A stretch of DNA of 64,000 nucleotides from Longimicrobiales bacterium (GCA_965204735.1 OZ242008.1:1728001-1792000); one strand, 5' to 3'; shown: positions 14,449 to 59,037, numbered from the stretch's first letter. Made by a program: numbers and translations. The notes: generated by a model from the letters alone, not told the origin.

Positions 14449-14913
14449 TCAGCCGGGTTGCGAGGCAATCGTCGCCCGGCGCTGGAGTGCCCGTATCACA
14501 TGAGGCATCGCGAGAAGCCTCAGGTAGCGGTCGTTGGCGTGATTCTGGATGACGAGACCGTTCTCCCATCGCCCAATGGTTGCCTCGCCAAGGCCGGTGA
14601 CGTGGGCGAAGGCGGCCCTCGTCATGCCGTATCCGCGTCGGATCGACCGAATGTCGGCGGGCGACAACACGCCTAGGTGCCGACAGATCGCTTCGTGGCG
14701 GAGCCGTTCGCCGTGCTGGTCGATGTACTGGAGGTCGCAGGCCGCACACGTGCGGACGGGCACGTACACGGGAATCCGAGACTTGAGGTCGCCGGATCCC
14801 CACGTCATCACGTCGTCGACCCATCGGGTGACGACTTCTTCGCCGTCGCACTGGGGACAGGGATCGGCGACGGTGGCGGCCGAGCCACGGGGCGCTGGCG
14901 CGGTGGATTCCAT
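14449..14913 (-). CDS. MqsA-like antitoxin/regulator (Zn ribbon plus XRE HTH)
   Basis: CPQC...CAAC zinc ribbon, then LSPADIRSIRRGYGMTRAAFAHVTGLGEATIGRWENG..QNHANDRYLRLL. Confidence 0.85.
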   Translation of the reverse strand: MESTAPAPRGSAATVADPCPQCDGEEVVTRWVDDVMTWGSGDLKSRIPVYVPVRTCAACDLQYIDQHGERLRHEAICRHLGVLSPADIRSIRRGYGMTRAAFAHVTGLGEATIGRWENGLVIQNHANDRYLRLLAMPHVIRALQRRATIASQPG

Positions 14914-15023
14914 GATTCGTCTATCACTCCGTCTGGCCAGCACGGCCAACTGATGCCGGGTGGCGGCGTCGATTCCCAACAGTTCGGGTCAAGGGCCGAG
15001 TGGATGGCTCCCGCCCGCCGCGC

Positions 15024-16535
15024 CTACTCCTCCGCCACGGGCGCGACCGCCTTCAGCACCTCCCGCGTCAGGTCCCAGCGGTTGAAGCCCTGGCGGCCGT
15101 AGTCCAGCCCCCGCCGGACGATCACCAGGTCGTGAGTGGGGACGACGACCACGTACTGGCCCCGGTTCCCGGCCGTCGAGTAGGCGGTGGCAGGCACGTC
15201 GGTGCGGTCGTCGGGGACCAGCCACCACTGGCCGCCGTAGAAGTTGCCGCGCTCGGCGGTGGAGGGTGCAGGCGTCCGCGCGAAGTCGATCCAGTCTTCG
15301 GAGATGATGCGCTCGCCGTTCCACACGCCGCCGTTCAGGTAGAGGAGGCCGAAGCGGGCCAAGTCGCGGGCGTTGGTGTACACTTGGCTGCTCAAGATGA
15401 AGTCGCCGAAGCGGTCCACGCTCAAGTAGGTGCTGCGCATCCCGATCCGGTCCAGCAGGGCGGTGCGGGGGAAGGCCAGGTAGTCGTCCCCCAAGGCCAG
15501 CTTCATGGCGTAGACGCCCAGCAGCGTGTCGTAGTTCTCGTAGTCCCAGTTGGCGCCCGGCTCCCGGACGAGCGCCCTGTGGCGCGCCCCGACGACGGAG
15601 CTGGCGCCGGCCCAGTAGGACATCCCCGAACCGACGGCGTACTCCATGCCGCGGTTGTCGACGGGGTACAAGCCGCTGGACATGTTGAGGACGTGACGCA
15701 AGGTGACTTGCGACCGCGGGTCGGTCTCGGCGGCGTCGGCCTCGGGAAGCCAGTCGAAGCCCAGGGGGGCGTCCAGCTCCAGCCGTCCCTGGTCCGCCAG
15801 GATGCCGATGAGCGTGACCGCGATGCTCTTGGCGGTCGACCAGGTGCGGGTGCGGGTGGTCATCTCCACGCCGGGGGCGTAGCGCTCGTGAACGATTCGG
15901 CCGCCGTGCACGACCAAGAGGCTGAGCGTGACCTGCTCCGGCGACTCCCGCTCGAAGGCCCACGTCGAAGCCGCGTCGAGAGCGGCGGCGTCCACCCCGT
16001 CGGGCCACGACTGCTCCGCCACCATGTCCCCGTCGGGCCAAGGGATCTCGGCGGGGTCGCCCGGGGGCGGCGCCATGTCGAGGACGGGCAGGCTCTCGAT
16101 GTCGTCGAAGCTCTGGTCGGGCGCCATGATCACGCAGCCCAGCCCGTCGCGGAACGCCGCCCGCATCGTCGGAACGTACCCGGGCGCACCGATGGCGACG
16201 GCCTTGCGCTCCCACTCCACCTCGTAGTCGCCGCCTTCCGCACTCCCGACCGCCGTGCCCAGCCGCCCTCGGATGTAAGCGATCTCCTGCTCGAAGACCT
16301 GCTCCAGCGTGCGATTCGACGTGAACAGCCCGTTGCAGAGGAAGATCGCCTGCATCCCCCGAGCGATCATCTCCCGGTTGAACCGCCAGTAGTCGTAGGA
16401 CTCCTGCTGCTGGGGCGCGACGGCTTCGGCGGGCGCGGCGCTCTCGCCGCCGGCGGGCGCAGGAGCCTCCGCGTCGGCAACGCAGGCGGCCTGCACGAAG
16501 AGGGCGAGGAAGGCAGCAGAGGCTGGAGGCTTCAT
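15024..16535 (-). CDS. Serine hydrolase, beta-lactamase/AmpC-like family lipoprotein
   Basis: SxxK (WSTAKS), YxN (YEN), LRHVLNMSSG, ARDLARFGLLYL, GNRGQY; lipobox QAA-C. Confidence 0.88.
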   Translation of the reverse strand: MKPPASAAFLALFVQAACVADAEAPAPAGGESAAPAEAVAPQQQESYDYWRFNREMIARGMQAIFLCNGLFTSNRTLEQVFEQEIAYIRGRLGTAVGSAEGGDYEVEWERKAVAIGAPGYVPTMRAAFRDGLGCVIMAPDQSFDDIESLPVLDMAPPPGDPAEIPWPDGDMVAEQSWPDGVDAAALDAASTWAFERESPEQVTLSLLVVHGGRIVHERYAPGVEMTTRTRTWSTAKSIAVTLIGILADQGRLELDAPLGFDWLPEADAAETDPRSQVTLRHVLNMSSGLYPVDNRGMEYAVGSGMSYWAGASSVVGARHRALVREPGANWDYENYDTLLGVYAMKLALGDDYLAFPRTALLDRIGMRSTYLSVDRFGDFILSSQVYTNARDLARFGLLYLNGGVWNGERIISEDWIDFARTPAPSTAERGNFYGGQWWLVPDDRTDVPATAYSTAGNRGQYVVVVPTHDLVIVRRGLDYGRQGFNRWDLTREVLKAVAPVAEE

Positions 16536-16704
16536 GGTGCGGGTCTCCTGGAGAAGTGGGTCGGACGAGGGGCGGGCGCGACAAGGGGATCGTAGAGGGT
16601 GTGCCGGAGGGCATGCTACGGCGCCGCGGCTTGGGCGAGCAAGACCGCGGCCCCGGCGGGTTCGTCCGACTGCTTCGCTGCGCATCAGAAAGACCGGGCG
16701 CGCC

Positions 16705-17232
16705 CTACGGAGCCTGCTGCCTCCGCATCACCAGGTGCTCCCCGGCTCCGTCCAGGGTCAGCAGCGCCACGTCGCCCGATGCGAGGTTGATCTCGCCGTG
16801 CCAGACGTAGCCGGTCGGGACGCCGCCCGGGGTCTCCGCGTCTTCGGCCAGCACGGCTTCGAAGCGCACCGACAGCGCTACCACTCCGGCCTCCGCGGAC
16901 AGGTCGCGGAGGACATGGACGGGTCGGTCGCCTCGCATCCCCTTCGGGAAGAGGGTGTCGCGGACGACGGGCCGGCCGTCGACGGCCACATCCAAGGCGA
17001 AGGGCGCCAAGGCCCGCGTGCACTCCCGGGGGCTCCGCATGTGGACGGGAAGGGTTGCCAGCTCCTCGTCGGTGCGAGTTCGGCACGCCTCGACGGGCAC
17101 GCCCGCAACTCGCCACGACAGTCGGACGATCGGGTCGTCGGCGCCGAAGTCCATCGGCGCGCGGGACAGCCATGCGACGCCGCCGGTCATCGCAATGGCC
17201 AGGAGGGCGGCCCCGGCTCGCCTAGCGGTCAA
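16705..17232 (-). CDS. Hypothetical N-terminally membrane-anchored protein, translationally coupled to the cytochrome b/Fe-S fusion
   Basis: TTG start overlaps the TGA of the upstream gene (TTGA); N-terminal TM; soluble domain RLSWR..C..EELATLPVHMR..C. Confidence 0.7.
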   Translation of the reverse strand: MTARRAGAALLAIAMTGGVAWLSRAPMDFGADDPIVRLSWRVAGVPVEACRTRTDEELATLPVHMRSPRECTRALAPFALDVAVDGRPVVRDTLFPKGMRGDRPVHVLRDLSAEAGVVALSVRFEAVLAEDAETPGGVPTGYVWHGEINLASGDVALLTLDGAGEHLVMRRQQAP

Positions 17233-19088
17233 GACGCGGCTCCGTCGGCTTCGCACTCCGCACCCACCTCGAACTGCCGTTCCGCCCGCGCGGCGTCCAT
17301 CGCCCGCACGCTCGACCAGAACCGCGCCACCCTGTCCCGCAGCACCCTGGCCTCGCCCGCCCCGGCGTAGACCACGTCGATCCGGCGGCGGTCCACCCGC
17401 TCCTGGAGCTCGGCTTCGCGCCCGTTGTGGACGCGCTCGTCGAACCACTTGACGCCTTCGCGGCTTCGGCAGTCCCTCGGAGGGCAAGCTGCCACGAGCA
17501 CGCCTCCGGCACCGGCCCGGACCAGGTACTCGATCACGGAGGTGTGAAGGCTGCCCACGCATCCCACGGGGAAGATCCGCGCCGCGGGGACGGCCGCGGA
17601 CGCAGCCGATCCGGCGGGTCCGTCGACGTCGGCGAGTCCCAGCGGGCGGAGCGACTCCAGCGAGCCGACCGACCCTGCCGCTCCGTGCATGCATCCCACG
17701 ATCACCACGTCGCTGGGACCGGGCCGCGCCTCGGCCAGGAACTCCCGCGTTCGGGCCAGCTGGTCCCGCCCCGTCCGTCCGTCGGGCCCCACGCCCATGG
17801 GCGCGCACGACCCTGCGCAGACGCCGCAGCTCACGCACTTGGCCGTATCCACCCAGCCGACCAAGCCGTCGCGTCCGTCGTCCCGTTCCACCATGGAGAT
17901 GGCTTCGTAGGGACAGTCCTGGAAGCACTGCTCGCAACCGGTGCAGTGGCGCGGGTTCACCCACGAAGGCGAGGGCGCCTTCTCCGCCCGCGGCTTGGTC
18001 AGGAACGGAACCAGAAGGGCCGCTGCGACGATCGATCCGCCCGCGACCCAGACCCAGCCGGCCGCCATGGTCCGGGTCGCAGGCAACCAGAACCCGTAGA
18101 CCCAGTCGGCAGGCACGACCGAGGGAAGCTTCAGCAAGTCCGCCTTCGGGCCCAGCGGAGGCGGCCACGCCACGGCTGCAATGGCCAGGCAGCCGACCGC
18201 GCCCCACAATAGCCGCTTGGGCGGAAGCAGCTGCGCTCGCGCCAGCCGCGACACGTGCACCCAGAGAAAGAGGGCGATCCCCACGGGCGCCGCGATGTGG
18301 GCGAACAAGTTCATGAAGAAGAACGCGTCCGGCAGGGGCGCCTCGCCGGTGAACGCCCGGCCCAGGGGCTCGGAGAAGACGGGCAGCGCGTCCAGGATGC
18401 GGGCGCCCTCGGCGGCGAGAACTTGGCCGTGGACGTCCCACGCCATGACGTAGCCGGTCCAGCCGCAGACGAAGAGGATGCCCAGGAGCACGCCCCCCGA
18501 CACCCATGCCAGCGCCCGCGGACCCCAGGTGCGGCGCTGGGCGAACATCCGAAAGCCGTGGAGGACCGCCGCCACGACCGCCAGGGCGGACGCGTAGCGA
18601 TGCATCCCCCGAATCCACCGCCCGCCCCACCACTGCGCGTCGATCGCCGCCACCGACTCGTGGGGCGCGCCGATCCGGTAGAAGAGGAGCAGATACGCCC
18701 CCGTCGCCAGGAGGACGCCGAAGCAAGCCACCACCAGCGCGCCCGAGTGGTAGAGCGGGTTGAAGCGCCAGGTGTACAGCGCGTTGAACGCGGCGTCGAG
18801 ACGGGCGAGCGCTCGGAGGCCGGGGTTCGCGGCAGCCGGGGAGCTGCCCGAAGCCTGAGGGCCGCCCGCCGGTGGGTGGTTGCTCGCCGCCCGGGAGCCG
18901 CCCTCCGGTGGGTGGTCGCCCGCCGCCCGGGAGCCGCCCGGCGGTGGGTGGTCGCCCGCCGCCTGAGAGCGGTCCCCCGCCTGAACGCCGCCGGCCGCCT
19001 GATAATCGCTCGCCGCCAAGCGGGACGCGGCCTCCCGCCCGGATCGCCCGCCACGCTTCCCACCTTGCCCCTCCCCAGCAATATTCAT
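17229..19088 (-). CDS. Cytochrome b (N-terminal domain) - 2x[4Fe-4S] dicluster - MvhD/FlpD-like [2Fe-2S] fusion protein
   Basis: Heme His pairs in RGMHRYASALAVVAAVLHG and FAHIAAPVGIALFLWVH; CTGCEQCFQDCP and CVSCGVCAGSC; MvhD-type Cys in VGCMHG, VGCVGSL, ACPPRDC. Start uncertain (low-complexity N-terminus). Confidence 0.85.
   Translation of the reverse strand: MNIAGEGQGGKRGGRSGREAASRLAASDYQAAGGVQAGDRSQAAGDHPPPGGSRAAGDHPPEGGSRAASNHPPAGGPQASGSSPAAANPGLRALARLDAAFNALYTWRFNPLYHSGALVVACFGVLLATGAYLLLFYRIGAPHESVAAIDAQWWGGRWIRGMHRYASALAVVAAVLHGFRMFAQRRTWGPRALAWVSGGVLLGILFVCGWTGYVMAWDVHGQVLAAEGARILDALPVFSEPLGRAFTGEAPLPDAFFFMNLFAHIAAPVGIALFLWVHVSRLARAQLLPPKRLLWGAVGCLAIAAVAWPPPLGPKADLLKLPSVVPADWVYGFWLPATRTMAAGWVWVAGGSIVAAALLVPFLTKPRAEKAPSPSWVNPRHCTGCEQCFQDCPYEAISMVERDDGRDGLVGWVDTAKCVSCGVCAGSCAPMGVGPDGRTGRDQLARTREFLAEARPGPSDVVIVGCMHGAAGSVGSLESLRPLGLADVDGPAGSAASAAVPAARIFPVGCVGSLHTSVIEYLVRAGAGGVLVAACPPRDCRSREGVKWFDERVHNGREAELQERVDRRRIDVVYAGAGEARVLRDRVARFWSSVRAMDAARAERQFEVGAECEADGAAS
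18861..18968. repeat. 36-bp tandem repeat, 3 copies (AAGDHPPxGGSR)
   Basis: GGTGGGTGGT(C/T)GC(C/T)CGCCGCC recurs at a 36-nt period in the 5' end of the cytochrome b fusion ORF. Confidence 0.8.
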
Positions 19089-19104
19089 ATCATCATGATA
19101 ATAG
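19081..19104. promoter_or_regulatory. AT-rich divergent promoter/operator (candidate Rrf2 site)
   Basis: ATATTCATATCATCATGATAATAG in a GC-rich background; inverted repeat TATCA-TCA-TGATA (19088-19100) between divergent genes. Confidence 0.5.
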
Positions 19105-19126
19105 GACGAATGCCGCAGGCAACCCC

Positions 19127-19567
19127 GTGATCCTCTCCCAGACCGCCGTGTACGCCCTTCGAGCGATGCTTCACTTGGCCGAGCGCCCCGACGACCAGCC
19201 GGTGCCGGTGGGCGACGTCGCGGCCGCGCTGGACGTTCCGCGCAACTACCTGTCCAAGATCCTCCACGTCCTTGCCCGGCGCGGCCTGCTCCGGTCCGTC
19301 CGTGGACCCGGCGGCGGATTCAGCCTCGCCCGTCCGCCCAGCCGAACGACGCTGCTGGAGGTGGCCGCCCACTTCGACGACATGGACCGCGAGCGCTGCC
19401 TGCTGGGCCGCCCCGAGTGCCGGGACGACGATCCGTGCCCGGCCCACGGCCAATGGAAGGAAGTCGCCGCCGCCCTGCACGCCTTCTTCCGCAACACCAC
19501 CATCGCCGACCTCGCCCGCGGCGCGACGAAGACTCGCCCGCGCCACCAACAGGAGGCCGACTCGTGA
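19127..19567 (+). CDS. Rrf2-family Fe-S transcriptional regulator
   Basis: SQTAVYALRAM, VPRNYLSKIL, SVRGPGGGFSLAR, C-x6-C-x5-C-x2-H. Confidence 0.93.
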   Translation: MILSQTAVYALRAMLHLAERPDDQPVPVGDVAAALDVPRNYLSKILHVLARRGLLRSVRGPGGGFSLARPPSRTTLLEVAAHFDDMDRERCLLGRPECRDDDPCPAHGQWKEVAAALHAFFRNTTIADLARGATKTRPRHQQEADS

Positions 19568-19743
19568 CCGACCACGACGACACTGGCGCAAAGGCGCCGG
19601 ACCCCGCCGACGTTCCCTTCCTCCAGCGGCTCTACGACCGGCCCTTCCTGCTGCTGGCGCTGGGCTTGGCCGTCATGCTGATCCTCTTCACCGGCTGGGG
19701 GCTGTGGGAGGTGCTGACGCTCCCCGAAGCCACCCTGCCGTAA
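19564..19743 (+). CDS. Small single-TM protein, probable accessory subunit of the heme-copper oxidoreductase
   Basis: GTG overlaps the rrf2 stop; 59 aa, PFLQRLYDRPFLLLALGLAVMLILFTGWGLWEV; followed by an RBS for subunit II. Confidence 0.75.
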   Translation: MTDHDDTGAKAPDPADVPFLQRLYDRPFLLLALGLAVMLILFTGWGLWEVLTLPEATLP

Positions 19744-19756
19744 GGAGCTGGCGCAG

Positions 19757-20347
19757 ATGTACCAAACGGGAATGACCCCGCCGCAAGGCGTCTGGTGGAA
19801 GCCGGCGCACAAGTCCGAGAAGGTCTGGGCCACGGTGGCCTTCGTCTGGTGCATGGTGCTCTTCGCCATGATGCCGGTCTGGCACCTTCGCGGAGGCCAG
19901 AACCCCTCCGGAATCCGCGCCAAGGTGGATCCGACCGCCTTCCAGGCCAGGGTCCAGGAGTTCATCCGCGACTACCAGGTGGGCACCGACAACGGCTTTC
20001 CGGTCGTGGCGCCGCCGCCGGGCAGCGACGTGTACATGATCGGCCAGATGTGGGCGTGGCTGCCGGTGCTTCAGCTCGAGAAGGACGTCGAGTACACTCT
20101 GCACCTCTCGTCGCTGGACGTGAACCACGGCTTCAACCTGTATCCGTTCAACGTCAACTTTCAGGTGGTTCCAGGATACGACTACGGACTGCGCATCGTG
20201 CCGACCGAGGCCGGCGAGTACGGCGTGGTCTGCAACGAGTTCTGCGGCGTCGGCCATCACTTGATGGTGGGGAAGGTGATCGTCACCGACTCGGAGACGA
20301 ACGTCGCCTCCCGACCGGCCGCCGGGGCGGAAGGCGGCGCCAGATGA
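19757..20347 (+). CDS. Heme-copper oxidoreductase subunit II (CuA), B-family/eNOR type
   Basis: Single TM plus cupredoxin domain with DVNHG and CNEFCGVGHHLM CuA ligands. Confidence 0.93.
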   Translation: MYQTGMTPPQGVWWKPAHKSEKVWATVAFVWCMVLFAMMPVWHLRGGQNPSGIRAKVDPTAFQARVQEFIRDYQVGTDNGFPVVAPPPGSDVYMIGQMWAWLPVLQLEKDVEYTLHLSSLDVNHGFNLYPFNVNFQVVPGYDYGLRIVPTEAGEYGVVCNEFCGVGHHLMVGKVIVTDSETNVASRPAAGAEGGAR

Positions 20348-22062
20348 ACCCGTTTCGCAAGTGTCCGACCACCGGGCTGAGCGTGCACAAGGACGCCGAC
20401 GCCCTGATCAAGGCCAACGCGGTGGCAGCCACGGTGGCGCTGCTGATCGGCGGCGTCACGGCGGTGCTCGTGCTGCTGACCCGGTGGCAGGCCGTTCATC
20501 TCCTGAGCGACGTGTGGTTCTACCGCATCCTCACCGTCCACGGGATGAACATGCTGATCTTCTTCATCCTGTTCTTCGAGATGGCGGTCCTCTACTTCGC
20601 GTCCGCCGTGCTGCTCAACTCCCGCGTGGCCGCGCCGAAGACGGGGTGGGTCGCGTTCGCTCTCATGCTGGCGGGCGCCGCAATGGTGGAGTGGGCCATG
20701 TTCACGGGCAGGGCGGACGTCCTGTTCACCTCCTACGTGCCCCTGAAGGCGCATTGGAGCTTCTACCTGGGCGTGATCCTCTTCGCCGTGGGCGCAATCT
20801 TCGTGACCACGATCTTCTTCGCGACCCTGGTGGTCGCCAAGCGGGAGAAGACGTATTCGGGGTCGGTGCCCCTGGTGACCTTCGGGGCGATGACGGCGGC
20901 GATCATCGCGGCGATCACGCTCCTCCACGGCGCGGCGATCTACATCCCCACCTTCCTCTGGTCGCTGGGCCTCATGGAGGTGGACCCGCAGGTGTACCGA
21001 CTGGTCTGGTGGGGGCTGGGCCACTCGTCGCAACAGATCAACGTCGCCGCCATGGTGGCGATCTGGTACCTGCTGGGCGGGCTCACCGTCGGCGCCGTGG
21101 TGGTGAACGAGAAGATCAGCCGCACGGCCTTCGTCCTGTACATCCTGTTCATTTCCATGGCGTCGGCGCACCACCTGCTGGTGGACCCGGGGTTCGGCCC
21201 GTCGTGGAAGATCGTGAACACGTCGTACTTCATGTACATGGCGGTGCTGGCGTCGATGCTCCACGGCTTCACCGTGCCGGCGGGCGTCGAGCTGGGGATG
21301 CGCCTTCGGGGCTTCACGCAAGGGTTGTTCGGCTGGCTTCGGCGCGCGCCCTGGCACGACCCGGGCTTCTCGGCGCTGTGCCTCTCCGTCGTGGTGTTCG
21401 GATTCGTGGGCGGAATCACGGGCGTGACCTTCGGCACCGAGCAGATCAACATCATCGCGCACAACACCTTGCGAATTCCCGGCCACTTCCACGCGACCGT
21501 CGTCAGCGGCACCGCGATGGCCTTCATGGGCGTCACCTACTACGTGATTCCGCTGATCTTCCGGAAGAAGATCGCCTTCTACGGCTTGGCGAAGTGGCAG
21601 CCGTGGGTGTTCAGCGCCGGAATGCTCGTGTTCTCTATGGCGATGACCTTCGCCGGAACCTTCGGCGTTCCGCGCAGGCACTGGGACGTCACCTTCTCCG
21701 GCGCGCCCTTCGGCGTCGAGTACTCCGCCGCCGTGGACTTGCTGTTCGCGGTCATGGCTGCCGGAGGGCTGGTCGCGGCAGTGGGCGGCGCCATGTACAT
21801 CGTGGTCACCGTGTCGTCGGTGTTCTTCGGCAAGCCGCTGGGCGACGAAACGACGGAGTCGGCCCTTGCGGGCGCCGTGCCGCCCGGTCTCTACACGCGC
21901 CCGTTCACGGAGCTTCCCGCCCGGACGCCGAAGCTGAAGGAACACGGCAAGCTGGGGACGATGCCGGGCACGATGATCCTCGTCGGCGTGTTCCTGCTCG
22001 CCTTCGTCGTCTACTACTTCGCCAACTGGAAGCTCCTGTCGGCGATGTGGCAGATCGGGTGA
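20344..22062 (+). CDS. Heme-copper oxidoreductase subunit I, probable eNOR-family nitric oxide reductase
   Basis: All six His ligands present (LTVHG, GHSSQQ, SAHHL, GHFH); Gln at the H+4 position where A/B-family O2 reductases have Tyr; ATGA overlap with subunit II. Confidence 0.82.
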   Translation: MNPFRKCPTTGLSVHKDADALIKANAVAATVALLIGGVTAVLVLLTRWQAVHLLSDVWFYRILTVHGMNMLIFFILFFEMAVLYFASAVLLNSRVAAPKTGWVAFALMLAGAAMVEWAMFTGRADVLFTSYVPLKAHWSFYLGVILFAVGAIFVTTIFFATLVVAKREKTYSGSVPLVTFGAMTAAIIAAITLLHGAAIYIPTFLWSLGLMEVDPQVYRLVWWGLGHSSQQINVAAMVAIWYLLGGLTVGAVVVNEKISRTAFVLYILFISMASAHHLLVDPGFGPSWKIVNTSYFMYMAVLASMLHGFTVPAGVELGMRLRGFTQGLFGWLRRAPWHDPGFSALCLSVVVFGFVGGITGVTFGTEQINIIAHNTLRIPGHFHATVVSGTAMAFMGVTYYVIPLIFRKKIAFYGLAKWQPWVFSAGMLVFSMAMTFAGTFGVPRRHWDVTFSGAPFGVEYSAAVDLLFAVMAAGGLVAAVGGAMYIVVTVSSVFFGKPLGDETTESALAGAVPPGLYTRPFTELPARTPKLKEHGKLGTMPGTMILVGVFLLAFVVYYFANWKLLSAMWQIG

Positions 22063-23045
22063 CGGCGGAACTCGGGCCTCGCGGGGCGCCGAAGATCCTC
22101 CGACCCCAGGACAGATGGCCCGTCGGGGCGGCCGCGTTCATCCTGGCCGTTTCCGCCGCGTGGTGGGGATTCGCGCTCTTCGCGGTTCCCGGCGCCCCCG
22201 AGTGGCTCGACCGCGCCCGCGCCGTCTGCTTCAACGTCGACGAGAGCGGCCTGCCCGACGCGAAGGGCTGGCTGCTGCTGATCGGACAGCCGCCGGCGAT
22301 GCTGCTGGCGCTGTACGCTGGGTGGAGCGGCCAAGTGCGCGACACTTGCCGCCACCTTGTCCGCTCTCCCGCCCGACGACGCCTGATCGTGGGCGCAGGT
22401 CTGGCGGTTGCGGCCTTTCTGGCGACCGCCGCGGCCCAGGTGGCCAGCCTTCGCCTCCCGCCCCCGGCGCTGGCGGCCGGCTTCGGAGCGACCGGCGACG
22501 AACTCCTGCCCGAGACCTACCCCCGCCTCGACCGCCCGTGGCCCGGGACCGAAGGGCTGGTGGACCAGCGCGGCGCCGCCTTCTCGCTGGAGAGCCTCGA
22601 AGGCCGACCGGCGTTCGTCACCTTCGCGTTCGGCCACTGCGCCACGATCTGCCCCATCGTGGTGCGCAACTCGCTGGAAGCGCGGCGGTCCGTGGCGTCC
22701 CAGCGGGATGCCGATGTCGAGACGGCGGTCGTGGTGTTCACGCTGGACCCTTGGCGCGACACGCCCAGCCGCTTGCCGGTCCTTGCGGAGCGCTATGGGC
22801 TCGACCCCGCGCGGGACTTCTTGGTCGGCGGCGCCCCGGAAGCCGTGACGCCCGTGTTGGACGCTTTCGCCATGGCCCACCAGCGCGACCCCCGAACCGG
22901 CGACGTCGTTCACCCGCCGCTGGTCTACGTGGCGGAGAGCGACGGGACGTTGGCCTACGCATCCACGGGCGCGACGGTCCATCTTGTGCAGCTGGCGGGC
23001 AGGACCGCCGGCCGAACGAACGACGCGACCCCGATAGGCCGCTGA
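22059..23045 (+). CDS. SCO/SenC copper chaperone fused to an N-terminal multi-TM domain
   Basis: FAFGHCATICP (CxxxC), TLDPWRDTP, VVHPP; GTGA overlap with subunit I. Confidence 0.88.
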   Translation: MTAELGPRGAPKILRPQDRWPVGAAAFILAVSAAWWGFALFAVPGAPEWLDRARAVCFNVDESGLPDAKGWLLLIGQPPAMLLALYAGWSGQVRDTCRHLVRSPARRRLIVGAGLAVAAFLATAAAQVASLRLPPPALAAGFGATGDELLPETYPRLDRPWPGTEGLVDQRGAAFSLESLEGRPAFVTFAFGHCATICPIVVRNSLEARRSVASQRDADVETAVVVFTLDPWRDTPSRLPVLAERYGLDPARDFLVGGAPEAVTPVLDAFAMAHQRDPRTGDVVHPPLVYVAESDGTLAYASTGATVHLVQLAGRTAGRTNDATPIGR

Positions 23046-23072: not shown

Positions 23073-23924
23073 ATGAGGGTCGTCACGTGGAACGTCGACC
23101 GGGCCACTTACTGCAAGAACACCCAGCTCTCGGCGGCAAAGTGGAAGGCGTTCCTGCGGATGTCGGCCGACATCGCCATGCTCCAGGAAGTCTACAACAT
23201 CCCGCAGTGCGTTCGCGACCGCTACCACGTCAAGTACGTGAAAGTACGCTACTTCACAGGAGGCTGCGCCAAGTTCGGGACCGCTGTGCTCGCCAGGAAG
23301 CCCGATTGGAAGATCGGGGCAGAAGCGACGTGGAGCTCGGAGCACGACTGGGTCAACCGGATCCAGCAAACGTTCCCCGGCTGGCTGGTCGGGCGTCAAG
23401 TCGAGAGCGCTTCGGGCGACCGCTGCACGGCCGTGTCAGTACATGCGCTGGCTGTTCCGGTTGAGCGCCGGGAAGGAACTCACGCGCTCTGCGAGATACT
23501 GGACGGCGTCGACGTCGCTCCTGTCAAGCTGCAAAACAACCCGACGCTGTGGTTCACGGAAATACTGTGGTCGCTGCTCAAGGGAGCCAAGATAGACAAA
23601 GCCGCGAGCTGGATCGTTGCCGGCGACTTCAACAGTTCCATACTGTTCGACAAGCCCAAGAACCGAGGCAACGGCGAGATCGTCGAAAGGCTCAACGCCT
23701 TGGGGCTCTTCGACTGCGTCGTCGAGCGCCATGGAGAGCGCAAGCCCACATATCGCGCCAAGACCCATCCGCACCTGGTGCCGGTCCATCAACTGGACTA
23801 CGTGTACGCGAACGCACCGTTGCTCGACCGCCTGACCGACGTCGCGGTGGGAGGAGACCTGCCGGCAGGGGAGAAGGGGCTCAGCGATCACCTTCCCGTC
23901 GTGTGCGACTTCGGAGACGCCTGA
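23073..23924 (+). CDS. Endonuclease/exonuclease/phosphatase (EEP) family protein
   Basis: MRVVTWNV, DIAMLQE, VAGDFN, QLDYVY, LSDHLPV. Confidence 0.88.
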   Translation: MRVVTWNVDRATYCKNTQLSAAKWKAFLRMSADIAMLQEVYNIPQCVRDRYHVKYVKVRYFTGGCAKFGTAVLARKPDWKIGAEATWSSEHDWVNRIQQTFPGWLVGRQVESASGDRCTAVSVHALAVPVERREGTHALCEILDGVDVAPVKLQNNPTLWFTEILWSLLKGAKIDKAASWIVAGDFNSSILFDKPKNRGNGEIVERLNALGLFDCVVERHGERKPTYRAKTHPHLVPVHQLDYVYANAPLLDRLTDVAVGGDLPAGEKGLSDHLPVVCDFGDA

Positions 23925-24147: not shown

Positions 24148-24651
24148 ATGAACATGAAGAAGATGGCGGCCGCCGGCCTGCTGGCGACGGGGGTCGCGGT
24201 GGTGCTGGTCGCCGGAAGCAGGTCCACGGACGAGGGGGCGGCGAGCTACTCGGCCCAGCCAGCGGCCGCCGGCGACGGTCCTGCGGTCCACGTCTACAAG
24301 ACGGCGACGTGCGGGTGCTGCGCGAAGTGGGTCGACCACCTGCGGGAGGCCGGCTTCGCCGTGACGGTCGAGGACACGAGGGAGTTGATGGCCGTCAAGC
24401 GGCGCGAGGGAGTCCCGACGGACCTCAGCTCGTGCCACACGGCGCTGGTGAACGGCTACGTCGTGGAGGGACACGTGCCCGCGTCGGTGGTCCACGCCTT
24501 CCTGGAGGAGGCCCCTGAAGCGCGGGGCCTCGCAGTCCCTGGAATGCCGATCGGATCGCCGGGGATGGAGGGCCGGCACGCGGAAGCCTACGACGTGTTC
24601 GCCTTCGACGCGGACGGCGAGCGGACCGTCTTCCGCCACGTCGAGCCGTAG
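24148..24651 (+). CDS. DUF411/CopG-like periplasmic metal (Cu)-binding protein
   Basis: YKTATCGCCAKWVDHL, SCHTA, EGHVP, GLAVPGMPIGSPGME; N-terminal signal/anchor. Confidence 0.9.
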   Translation: MNMKKMAAAGLLATGVAVVLVAGSRSTDEGAASYSAQPAAAGDGPAVHVYKTATCGCCAKWVDHLREAGFAVTVEDTRELMAVKRREGVPTDLSSCHTALVNGYVVEGHVPASVVHAFLEEAPEARGLAVPGMPIGSPGMEGRHAEAYDVFAFDADGERTVFRHVEP

Positions 24652-55993: not shown

Positions 55994-58955
<2,962 letters not shown>

Positions 58956-59037
58956 AGCACCTGTCTTTCCACCGCGTCTCTCCGACACGGAAACCGAAAG
59001 GCTCTTCCTTCCTTCTGCCCTTCTTTCTTTTTCGAAA

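Follow-up and report, generated by a model that had tools for sequence, protein, structure and literature searches.

A Rieske-less cytochrome b/Fe-S fusion protein and its small membrane-anchored partner accompany eNOR-type nitric oxide reductases in three bacterial phyla

In this study we analysed a stretch of 64,000 nucleotides from a Longimicrobiales bacterium (GCA_965204735.1, OZ242008.1:1728001-1792000; hereafter the window), in which seven genes between positions 16,705 and 23,045 form two divergent units. The rightward unit is predicted to encode an eNOR-type heme-copper nitric oxide (NO) reductase with its own copper chaperone. The leftward unit is a pair of genes: one joins a cytochrome b to two [4Fe-4S] clusters and an MvhD-like domain (the fusion), and the other encodes a small membrane-anchored partner. 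Our data support a dedicated link of this pair to eNOR and its action as one unit. We propose, with a probability that we put at about 0.45, that the pair is a dedicated two-subunit, Rieske-less cytochrome b complex serving as an outward, low-flux wire that would mature, activate or reactivate eNOR; its topology, direction, donor and client are ones that we infer.

The link to eNOR is seen in the co-occurrence of the two. We profiled 490 genomes in three phyla (251 Gemmatimonadota, 88 from the phylum of genome G254 and 151 from that of G251 and G252, the latter a member of Methylomirabilia). Among the Gemmatimonadota 59 genomes carry the fusion and 58 an eNOR at 65% identity or more; all 58 have both, and in 57 of them the two lie within 5 kb on one contig. 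The only exception, G126, has no eNOR and keeps the fusion as a broken remnant. This decayed locus (L036; G126:C1:2067000-2069500) comprises a broken sco, a FlpD-only remnant, an intact small gene, a broken rrf2 and an operator that has been kept. Genomes with only weak B-family-like matches (28-35%) never have the fusion (0/29), and six such genes in our tree carry the motif HPLVY. In the phylum of G254 fusion and eNOR occur in the same 15 of 88 genomes. In the phylum of G251 and G252 the fusion is present in 18 of 151 genomes, all of them among the 20 with eNOR; of the two fusion-less ones, G465 has an enzyme of the HPAQQ type, and the contig of G403 stops 2.7 kb downstream. We also checked for the reverse pattern, a fusion found mostly without an HSSQQ-type subunit I, and this is not the case (58/59, 15/15 and 18/18 fusion genomes have the enzyme). 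Other loci gave the same picture. Subunit I stands alongside in 18 of 20 GTDB loci with the fusion; in one of the others (L017) it lies on another contig, and the last (L019) is a 3-kb contig from a 1.7-Mb genome without a match. From 80 metagenome eNOR loci 34 were dropped as too short, and 45 of the 46 that reach at least 2 kb upstream contain the fusion. The dedication of the leftward pair to eNOR, which had been proposed from the sequence alone, is supported by its co-occurrence in three phyla and in metagenome loci.

The layout itself is not general. The head-to-head arrangement with Rrf2 is the one seen in Gemmatimonadota, and elsewhere the pair lies inside the eNOR operon, right after the gene for the copper chaperone SCO. 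For Proteobacteria our basis is one operon, a protein search and published papers: an alphaproteobacterial plasmid operon runs in one direction through a small transmembrane (TM) protein, subunit II, subunit I, cyoE, SCO, fusion, partner and hemerythrin. Some eNOR-fusion operons of other phyla (L149, L151 and L028) are flanked by NnrS, hemerythrin, a Crp-family regulator and nirS, neighbours that are consistent with an NO context.

The module had been thought undescribed, and this did not hold. An architecture of cytochrome b, 4Fe-4S and MvhD with the Rieske gene missing from the cluster was named the PDWF-FeS clade in 2014 (Kao & Hunte 2014, PMC4122944), with Magnetospirillum magneticum AMB-1 along with Turneriella parva as hosts and a FAD-fused form in Alicycliphilus; the accessible part of that paper gives no eNOR link, partner subunit or function for it. 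Dataset S4 of PMC11214002 lists both T. parva and Alicycliphilus among the carriers of eNOR, and the eNOR neighbourhood of M. magneticum AMB-1 is mentioned in a figure legend of the preprint version of the same paper, the available text of which does not mention the cytochrome b pair alongside eNOR. The same three domains are listed for one protein in PMC8756737. Finally, cytochrome b-FeS genes in the eNOR operon of Ferrigenium were noted in a 2026 preprint, where a supercomplex is proposed (bioRxiv 10.64898/2026.01.22.701106, section 6.5.2). We found no functional study of the pair in the literature searched, which comprised mostly open-access papers.

The features of the locus are the following.

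16705..17232, minus strand: small partner protein, 175 amino acids (aa), TTG start
17229..19088, minus strand: cytochrome b/Fe-S fusion, 619 aa; Cytochrome_B aa 110-282, Fer4 377-428, FlpD 495-597
18861..18970, no strand: 36-bp tandem repeat, 3.1 copies, inside the fusion's lineage-specific N-terminal extension
19065..19093, plus strand: promoter-like site of the rrf2-eNOR operon, TTGCCC-17-TATCAT
19083..19100, no strand: palindrome of the ATCATR-N4-YATGAT type, candidate Rrf2 operator, spanning both -10 hexamers
19095..19122, minus strand: promoter-like site of the fusion-partner pair, TTGCCT-16-TATCAT
19127..19567, plus strand: rrf2; PF02082 and TIGR00738 above cut-off; C91, C98, C104, H107
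19564..19743, plus strand: 59-aa single-TM protein, conserved directly before subunit II in eNOR loci
19757..20347, plus strand: CuA subunit II; H124, C159, E161, C163, H167, M170; channel Glu E21
20344..22062, plus strand: eNOR subunit I, GHSSQQ; H66, H227, H276, H277, H381, H383; Q231, Y242, S304, H307
22059..23045, plus strand: TM-SCO, a TM domain with an SCO1/SenC copper chaperone (PF02630 aa 167-297), CxxxC

A scan of the window for open reading frames (ORFs) and domains confirmed all seven genes with their strands and couplings, and with them the two divergent, tightly coupled units of the sequence-only reading. The partner begins with a TTG that shares its last two bases with the TGA stop of the fusion (TTGA). 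In the rightward unit neighbouring genes overlap by 4 bases at three of the four junctions, and at the remaining one they are 13 bp apart, with AAGGAG in the gap. The region between the units had been described as very short and AT-rich. It is indeed short (38 bp), its overall A+T content is 50%, and a 32-bp core reaches 72%, against about 30% for the window. The host, a member of Gemmatimonadota, is represented by one 4.14-Mb contig that is 98% complete. Rieske protein, cytochrome c1 and hydrogenase are missing from the locus, as had been claimed: all four Rieske matches in the genome fall outside the 64-kb window, the domain scan revealed no cytochrome c domain in any of the seven ORFs, and a search of the 98%-complete genome found no [NiFe]-hydrogenase large subunit. 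The claim had also covered heterodisulfide reductase, and HdrA was not searched for separately. FlpD occurs a single time in the host genome. A separate Rieske-cytochrome b-cytochrome c locus lies at about 925-927 kb; an A-family oxidase, a 2-oxoacid:ferredoxin oxidoreductase family gene and a ctaA-family gene, about 1.5 Mb from the locus, are present as well, and heme genes are absent at the locus.

The rightward enzyme has the sequence marks of eNOR. The best PDB matches of subunit I are ba3 oxidases, and those of subunit II are led by ba3 subunit II. The cross-linked Tyr of ba3 is replaced by Gln (H227-x3-Q231 aligns to ba3 H233-x3-Y237), a substitution named as the eNOR diagnostic (PMC8756737). 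All five channel residues of R. marinus eNOR (Q245, Y256, S318, H321 and E21 of subunit II; Dataset S1 of PMC11214002) are matched, by Q231, Y242, S304 and H307 at identical spacing and by E21 of subunit II, so that the assignment to eNOR made from the sequence alone is upheld. Six His ligands and a CuA subunit II are in place; in the latter H124, C159, E161, C163, H167, M170 and E21 are invariant in 82 rows. The 59-aa TM protein is presumably subunit IIa-like, after its counterpart in ba3. In a tree built from a quick search (34 rows, some motif labels in row names being mis-parsed) the 6 HPLVY rows separate (support 98 in the Shimodaira-Hasegawa-like approximate likelihood-ratio test, SH-aLRT) from 26 Gln rows (82), and fusion-less eNORs sit on long branches and stay unplaced. 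Together with the ba3 matches the tree points to a B-family-derived clade distinct from Tyr-bearing oxidases. A B-family O2 reductase was rejected as an identity for subunit I, since the active-site Tyr is missing. None of nirK, nirS and nosZ was found above cut-off in the host genome; hence the NO source is probably external, and the likely task of the enzyme is to remove or respire NO that others make. According to the available parts of PMC11214002, eNOR uses heme As, the purified R. marinus enzyme turns over with tetramethyl-p-phenylenediamine (TMPD)/ascorbate, and Table 1 counts 547 eNOR sequences in GTDB and 2,709 in IMG. Two observations on other loci were made in passing. A divergent COX1-family gene with a GHILQF motif and no Tyr at H+4 adjoins eNOR in two other phyla (L149:3459-4871, L150, L151:13265-14659, L152, L189:6877-8352 and L190:7294-8715), and in L187 (G465:C69) an HPAQQ-type eNOR, without the fusion, is inserted between genes that by eye resemble the alpha and beta subunits of a nitrate reductase/nitrite oxidoreductase.

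In the fusion the Cytochrome_B, Fer4 and FlpD domains all score above the Pfam cut-off. Two homologue searches, each listing 120 matches, with 8,000 candidates scored, gave 2,192 relatives at E<=0.001 in one and 4,424 at E<=1e-30 in the other; all matches listed have the cytochrome b and Fe-S domains, and all but one have FlpD. A frameshift or artefact was rejected as the origin of the fusion, which is a single ORF with thousands of relatives. Its AlphaFold2 model (predicted local distance difference test score, pLDDT, 92) has six membrane helices, and the Foldseek matches of the model are cytochrome b/b6 structures. In an alignment of 118 rows the heme ligands H163, H177, H264 and H278, the eight Fer4 Cys and C466, C510 and C535 are present in every row, and C540 is present in 116. 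The four His for two b hemes of Rieske/cytochrome b complexes are therefore in place; a Rieske protein with cytochrome c1 or f in the unit and a PEWY-type motif are not. The Qo motif reads ADWV here, mostly xD[V/L][F] in relatives and xDWF in distant fused forms. Its acid, D328, is D or N in 118/118 rows (D in 111); the canonical Trp is kept in only 20 of the 118, the Pro is degenerate as well, and the residue preceding D328 is mostly L, F or V. At the position of the heme ci Cys the rows have H or Q (H114 here). ESM Atlas also returned cytochrome b matches without FlpD, which scored under 0.9 and serve as leads only.

The Fer4 and FlpD block of the fusion aligns in one stretch with the C-terminus of HdrA2, and C510, C535 and C540 align with the Cys of MvhD. 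We take C466, C510, C535 and C540 to be ligands of a [2Fe-2S] cluster. In Hdr complexes electrons enter through MvhD (PMC6019823). Such a domain normally docks a hydrogenase to HdrA. The host genome yielded no [NiFe] large subunit, HdrA not being searched for separately, and we rejected an Hdr/hydrogenase module as an account of the fusion. The N-terminus of b6 lies inside; if the fusion is oriented likewise, its Fe-S domains would face the cytoplasm. The first ~90 aa are of low complexity, the conserved part begins near aa 92, and most homologues have only about 17 residues in place of this extension. The start of the fusion may be the ATG at 19088 or a later TTG, both being possible within the 18861-19088 extension. 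An extra C-terminal Cys (C612, 'ECE', window 17253-17255) is found in 91% of 160 aligned rows and is missing from fused forms.

The partner consists of an N-terminal TM helix and an outer beta-sandwich (AlphaFold2 pLDDT 95), on a hairpin of which sits the motif C50-x13-H64-M65-x5-C71. It has 788 relatives at E<=0.001 and no match in Pfam or NCBIfam. Among 138 rows chosen by likeness to the query, C50 and C71 are invariant and H64 and M65 occur in 137; the His-Met pair is lost, with both Cys kept, in P0172 and in distant fused forms. In fold searches, which bore on a likeness to Rieske, cupredoxin or copper-chaperone folds, Foldseek gave no match at E<=0.001 and the best VIA-align hits were generic beta-sandwiches (best Z 7.2, root-mean-square deviation 3.6 over 93 residues); that no family emerged does not show a new fold. 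The ESM Atlas matches are hypothetical clusters.

That the pair acts as one unit is supported by gene fusion and by a modelled complex. The partner is fused behind FlpD in 7 of 8 long matches scanned, four of which are full length (in one of the four FlpD falls below threshold), and L019 as well as 6 of 7 distant genomes from the G254 phylum also have partner and fusion as a single gene. The complex model of fusion and partner scores 0.75, against 0.00 for the best control, on a scale whose mark was reached by 116 of 157 solved pairs and 2 of 215 mismatched ones, with the proviso that halves of a split gene tend to pass. Its runs agree in at least 89% of contacts, with a pLDDT of at least 77 for the partner. 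In the model the conserved partner residues R37, W40, R41, G98, R103 and P104 would face the cd2 region and the ef loop with D328, and helices B and E would receive the partner's anchor. None of the contacts listed involves the Cys/His/Met hairpin, whose position is uncertain. Subunit II was part of the same model; no contacts of it were listed, and a control in which another protein took the place of the fusion scored 0.00, so that binding of the partner to subunit II is neither supported nor contradicted.

Both units appear to share one regulatory site. Only two sigma-70-like sites occur in 6.8 kb (shuffles have a mean of 0.3); they are divergent and overlap in the stretch that separates the start codons. 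On the rrf2 side the layout TTGC..17..TATCAT/TATTAT recurs in relatives. The fusion's ATG at 19088 lies 6 bases downstream of its promoter-like site, so that its mRNA is possibly leaderless. The consensus of the palindrome, which covers the -10 boxes of both sites, was drawn from GTDB loci by inspection, for which its fit to 26 of 29 is circular. A position weight matrix trained without the window has the window's palindrome as its top genome-wide match. By ORF inspection no recognisable N-oxide genes lie at the next matches; the best of these (G000:C1:2760392, 22.6 bits, and 551377, 20.0 bits) are near transporter-like ORFs, possibly by chance. As a held-out test we used 51 metagenome loci with the divergent layout, a few of them near-duplicates (29 of the 80 were dropped as too short or without this layout). 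A palindrome of at least 15 bits occurs in 29 of 32 loci with rrf2 between the units, in 1 of 3 with rrf2 elsewhere in the locus and in 5 of 16 with none seen. The Rrf2 subfamily is found in 104 of the 251 Gemmatimonadota genomes, and among 20 strong copies away from eNOR, which were picked by hand, 12 have the palindrome within 150 bp upstream. Fourteen of these 20 face a clade II nosZ above cut-off (14 of the 17 whose neighbours were scanned), 10 of them with the site. In G021 the site is present at an eNOR junction where rrf2 is absent and at an rrf2-nosZ junction about 20 kb off. Rrf2 genes beside clade II nos clusters have been reported before (PMC6264515); a search of the literature for a published binding site found none.

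The regulator itself falls below the cut-off of the IscR, NsrR, CymR and RirA models (IscR 78 against 208 bits, NsrR 48 against 182). Its closest solved structure is IscR, and C91, C98, C104 and H107 align with IscR 92, 98, 104 and 107, which gives three Cys plus a fourth ligand. This C/C/C/H pattern is kept in 70 of 77 Rrf2 locus matches, and the set is nearer to that of IscR than to that of NsrR. A shared operator-like site that tracks Rrf2 is supported, as far as the co-regulation under one Rrf2 suggested earlier is concerned; that Rrf2 binds this site, and the signal to which it would respond, we only infer. As a separate observation, short (~145 aa) proteins with only the N-terminal part of COX1 adjoin Rrf2 genes in three loci (L171:3658-4092, L174:1795-2250 and L175:4296-4727).

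How could such a pair work? In the wire that we propose, electrons from a cytoplasmic donor, ferredoxin or flavodoxin, would enter at the MvhD-like [2Fe-2S] cluster and pass over two [4Fe-4S] clusters, the inner and the outer heme b to the periplasmic face. The partner would cap the former Qo/ef-loop surface, and its Cys-clamped His-Met hairpin might be offered to a client, for which SCO, apo-CuA and the catalytic centre are candidates. Both overlapping promoters would be blocked by a single Rrf2 dimer bound to the palindrome, and loss or modification of its Fe-S cluster (by NO, a nitrosative or a low-O2 signal) would free both transcripts together. The outward direction is suggested by the match of the Fer4 and FlpD block to HdrA2, by the role of MvhD as an entry point and by the presence of a 2-oxoacid:ferredoxin oxidoreductase gene. 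The pair is unlikely to be a second bc complex, because the Qo Trp is rarely kept and the separate Rieske-cytochrome b-cytochrome c locus can feed CuA. A maturation role is indicated since the fusion directly follows SCO in co-oriented operons and the R. marinus enzyme works with TMPD/ascorbate. Taken together, an Fe-S block of the entry-module type, a degenerate and capped Qo site, a normal quinol-to-cytochrome c route and the adjacency to SCO argue for an outward maturation wire. Of the electron-delivery or maturation role like that of NosR or CcoG that had been suggested from the sequence, the link to eNOR and the single unit stand, and the direction and the sink of electrons are still conjectural.

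Several points weigh against this proposal. The main weakness is that other CuA enzymes and some eNORs do without the pair. CuA/SCO-dependent O2 reductases of the same phylum have no such wire, so that plain loading of CuA is not the explanation. eNORs of the HGAQQ type on Thermus and Thermomicrobium plasmids have no pair within 8-10 kb, and the eNORs of G190 (HGTQQ; genome search) and G465 (HPAQQ) are without it as well; the pair is therefore not required to build every eNOR. Kinship among the genomes means that our counts overstate independence. D328 and the cd helices are strongly conserved and quinone binding may persist, relatives fused to FAD/NADH domains resemble higher-flux enzymes, and a donor gene is absent from the locus. 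That the His-Met pair is lost where the Cys are kept agrees more with a disulfide of structural role than with a metal site present throughout. The overlapping -10 boxes may account for part of the conservation seen in the palindrome.

A rather unlikely but serious competitor is bulk supply, in which most of the electrons that reach eNOR in NO respiration would pass through the pair, acting as a ferredoxin/NADH:quinone (or :CuA) oxidoreductase and possibly joined to eNOR in a supercomplex. The chain would be complete, with two hemes and three Fe-S clusters whose ligands are invariant, the acidic Qo residue is conserved, FAD/NADH-fused relatives lie within eNOR operons and co-occurrence with eNOR is near one-to-one. 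However, the canonical Rieske-cytochrome b-cytochrome c route is already encoded in the host genome, export of cytoplasmic electrons would on general bioenergetic grounds cost membrane potential, and eNORs without the pair exist. A bolder reading, to which we would give a clearly smaller chance, sees here a new cytochrome b class in which the Cys/His/Met beta-sandwich replaces Rieske protein and cytochrome c1 as a redox relay with copper or heme. Such a complex would connect ferredoxin or NADH in the cytoplasm directly with the CuA of eNOR, or would share out the electrons of quinol, some to eNOR and some to an acceptor in the cytoplasm; it would be the natural partner of most eNORs and would belong to an Rrf2 regulon that includes clade II nosZ in Gemmatimonadota. 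Slightly less probable again is inward or bifurcating transfer as such, with quinol oxidised at the Qo-like site, one electron going via the partner to eNOR and the other, over the hemes and Fe-S clusters, to NAD+ or ferredoxin. This would extend the proposal made in the available part of bioRxiv 10.64898/2026.01.22.701106, and the entire cytochrome b scaffold including the ef loop is kept, with the partner modelled on the Qo face. The degenerate Qo Trp and Pro and the non-universal His-Met pair speak against it. Transfer from a b heme to a ferredoxin-type cluster is moreover steeply uphill by the usual potentials, and the module, which does not mark autotrophic iron oxidisers, is common in Gemmatimonadota, most of which live as heterotrophs and would hardly need reverse transfer.

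We find it very doubtful that the pair is a redox partner for the synthesis of heme As from heme O, or for heme insertion, under low O2. The use of heme As by eNOR (PMC11214002) would agree with such a role, as would the genes for heme o synthase or UbiA-family proteins that some operons have between subunit I and the fusion, but here ctaA is far from the locus, which has no heme genes, and the heme-a O2 reductases of the same genomes lack the pair. Least credible of all appears mere co-regulation, in which an independent NO-stress or redox-sensing unit has no mechanistic tie to eNOR. The pair does have a separate transcript unit here, and this Rrf2 with its palindrome also appears to serve genes unrelated to eNOR, nosZ being one; yet an intact fusion without eNOR was found in none of the 490 genomes searched, the one in G126 being broken, and in other phyla the pair lies inside the eNOR operon.

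Further features of the window were noted outside the module. An endonuclease/exonuclease/phosphatase-family gene of lower GC (0.63) directly follows SCO (23073-23924) and is absent from 20 related loci, and neither a DUF411 metal-binding protein (24151-24651, plus strand) nor a beta-lactamase-fold protein (15024-16685, minus strand) is conserved beside the module in these 20. An ORF at 14449-14979 (minus strand) has two CxxC pairs and a C-terminal HTH-like (helix-turn-helix-like) stretch; judged by eye, it resembles an MqsA-type antitoxin. Positions 56001-59000 form a low-GC island (0.58-0.60 against 0.70).

What our work adds is a profile over three phyla, a model of the two-subunit complex and an operator, open to testing, that recurs at nosZ loci. 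A common enzyme that was recognised only recently, eNOR produces nitrous oxide (N2O), a greenhouse gas, and as far as the accessible text of PMC11214002 tells it has been assayed only with artificial donors. As the pair accompanies nearly every HS[S/A]QQ-type eNOR examined, it is an obvious candidate for the missing assembly or electron-supply machinery and may be needed for heterologous expression of eNOR. It also exemplifies the reuse of a bc-type cytochrome b in a unit that has no Rieske protein. With the shared operator comes a testable link between production (eNOR) and consumption (clade II nosZ) of N2O in Gemmatimonadota. Defluviimonas sp. SAOS-178_SWC, which is in culture, carries the complete operon on a plasmid.

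Compared with known systems, the rightward enzyme resembles the R. marinus eNOR family in Gln for Tyr, six His, channel spacing, CuA subunit II and B-family ancestry, and differs from the family as described in PMC11214002 in that ctaA/ctaB are not at the locus. With IscR, NsrR and NsrR(Th) the regulator has in common the HTH domain, three C-terminal Cys and a palindrome at N-oxide respiration promoters, but its operator differs from that given for Thermus NsrR(Th) in the accessible part of PMC5748679, and its alignment with the Rrf2 of the Thermus plasmid is confined to the HTH half (35%). The fusion shares its three domains and the lack of a Rieske gene in the cluster with the PDWF-FeS clade, whereas its Qo motif is ADWV and not PDWF/PDWY; it would hence be a relative with PDWF-FeS architecture rather than a strict member. 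In Ferrigenium, likened here by description, cytochrome b-FeS genes likewise stand beside eNOR and SCO and were seen in the proteome. A second paralogue there has FAD/NADH domains, and in the preprint the genes are described as unusual and as marking Ferrigenium; we rejected a Ferrigenium-specific marker, one MvhD-type copy being common across several phyla. Helices A-E, four heme His, the cd helices and the ef loop are shared with bc1 and b6f, from which the fusion differs in having no Rieske protein or cytochrome c1/f in the unit, a degenerate PEWY, no heme ci Cys and a predicted cytoplasmic Fe-S extension. With the HdrA2 C-terminus and MvhD it shares a di-cluster ferredoxin and, after it, an MvhD fold whose Cys are conserved, but here there is no FAD domain, no hydrogenase was found in the genome, and the block is joined to a membrane cytochrome. 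In its way of working the pair might come closest to NosR and CcoG/FixG, likewise membrane proteins with cytoplasmic [4Fe-4S] clusters and an outer domain that are tied to one copper respiratory enzyme; unlike these, it would build on an unrelated bc-type cytochrome b scaffold, with no FMN domain and with a separate partner subunit.

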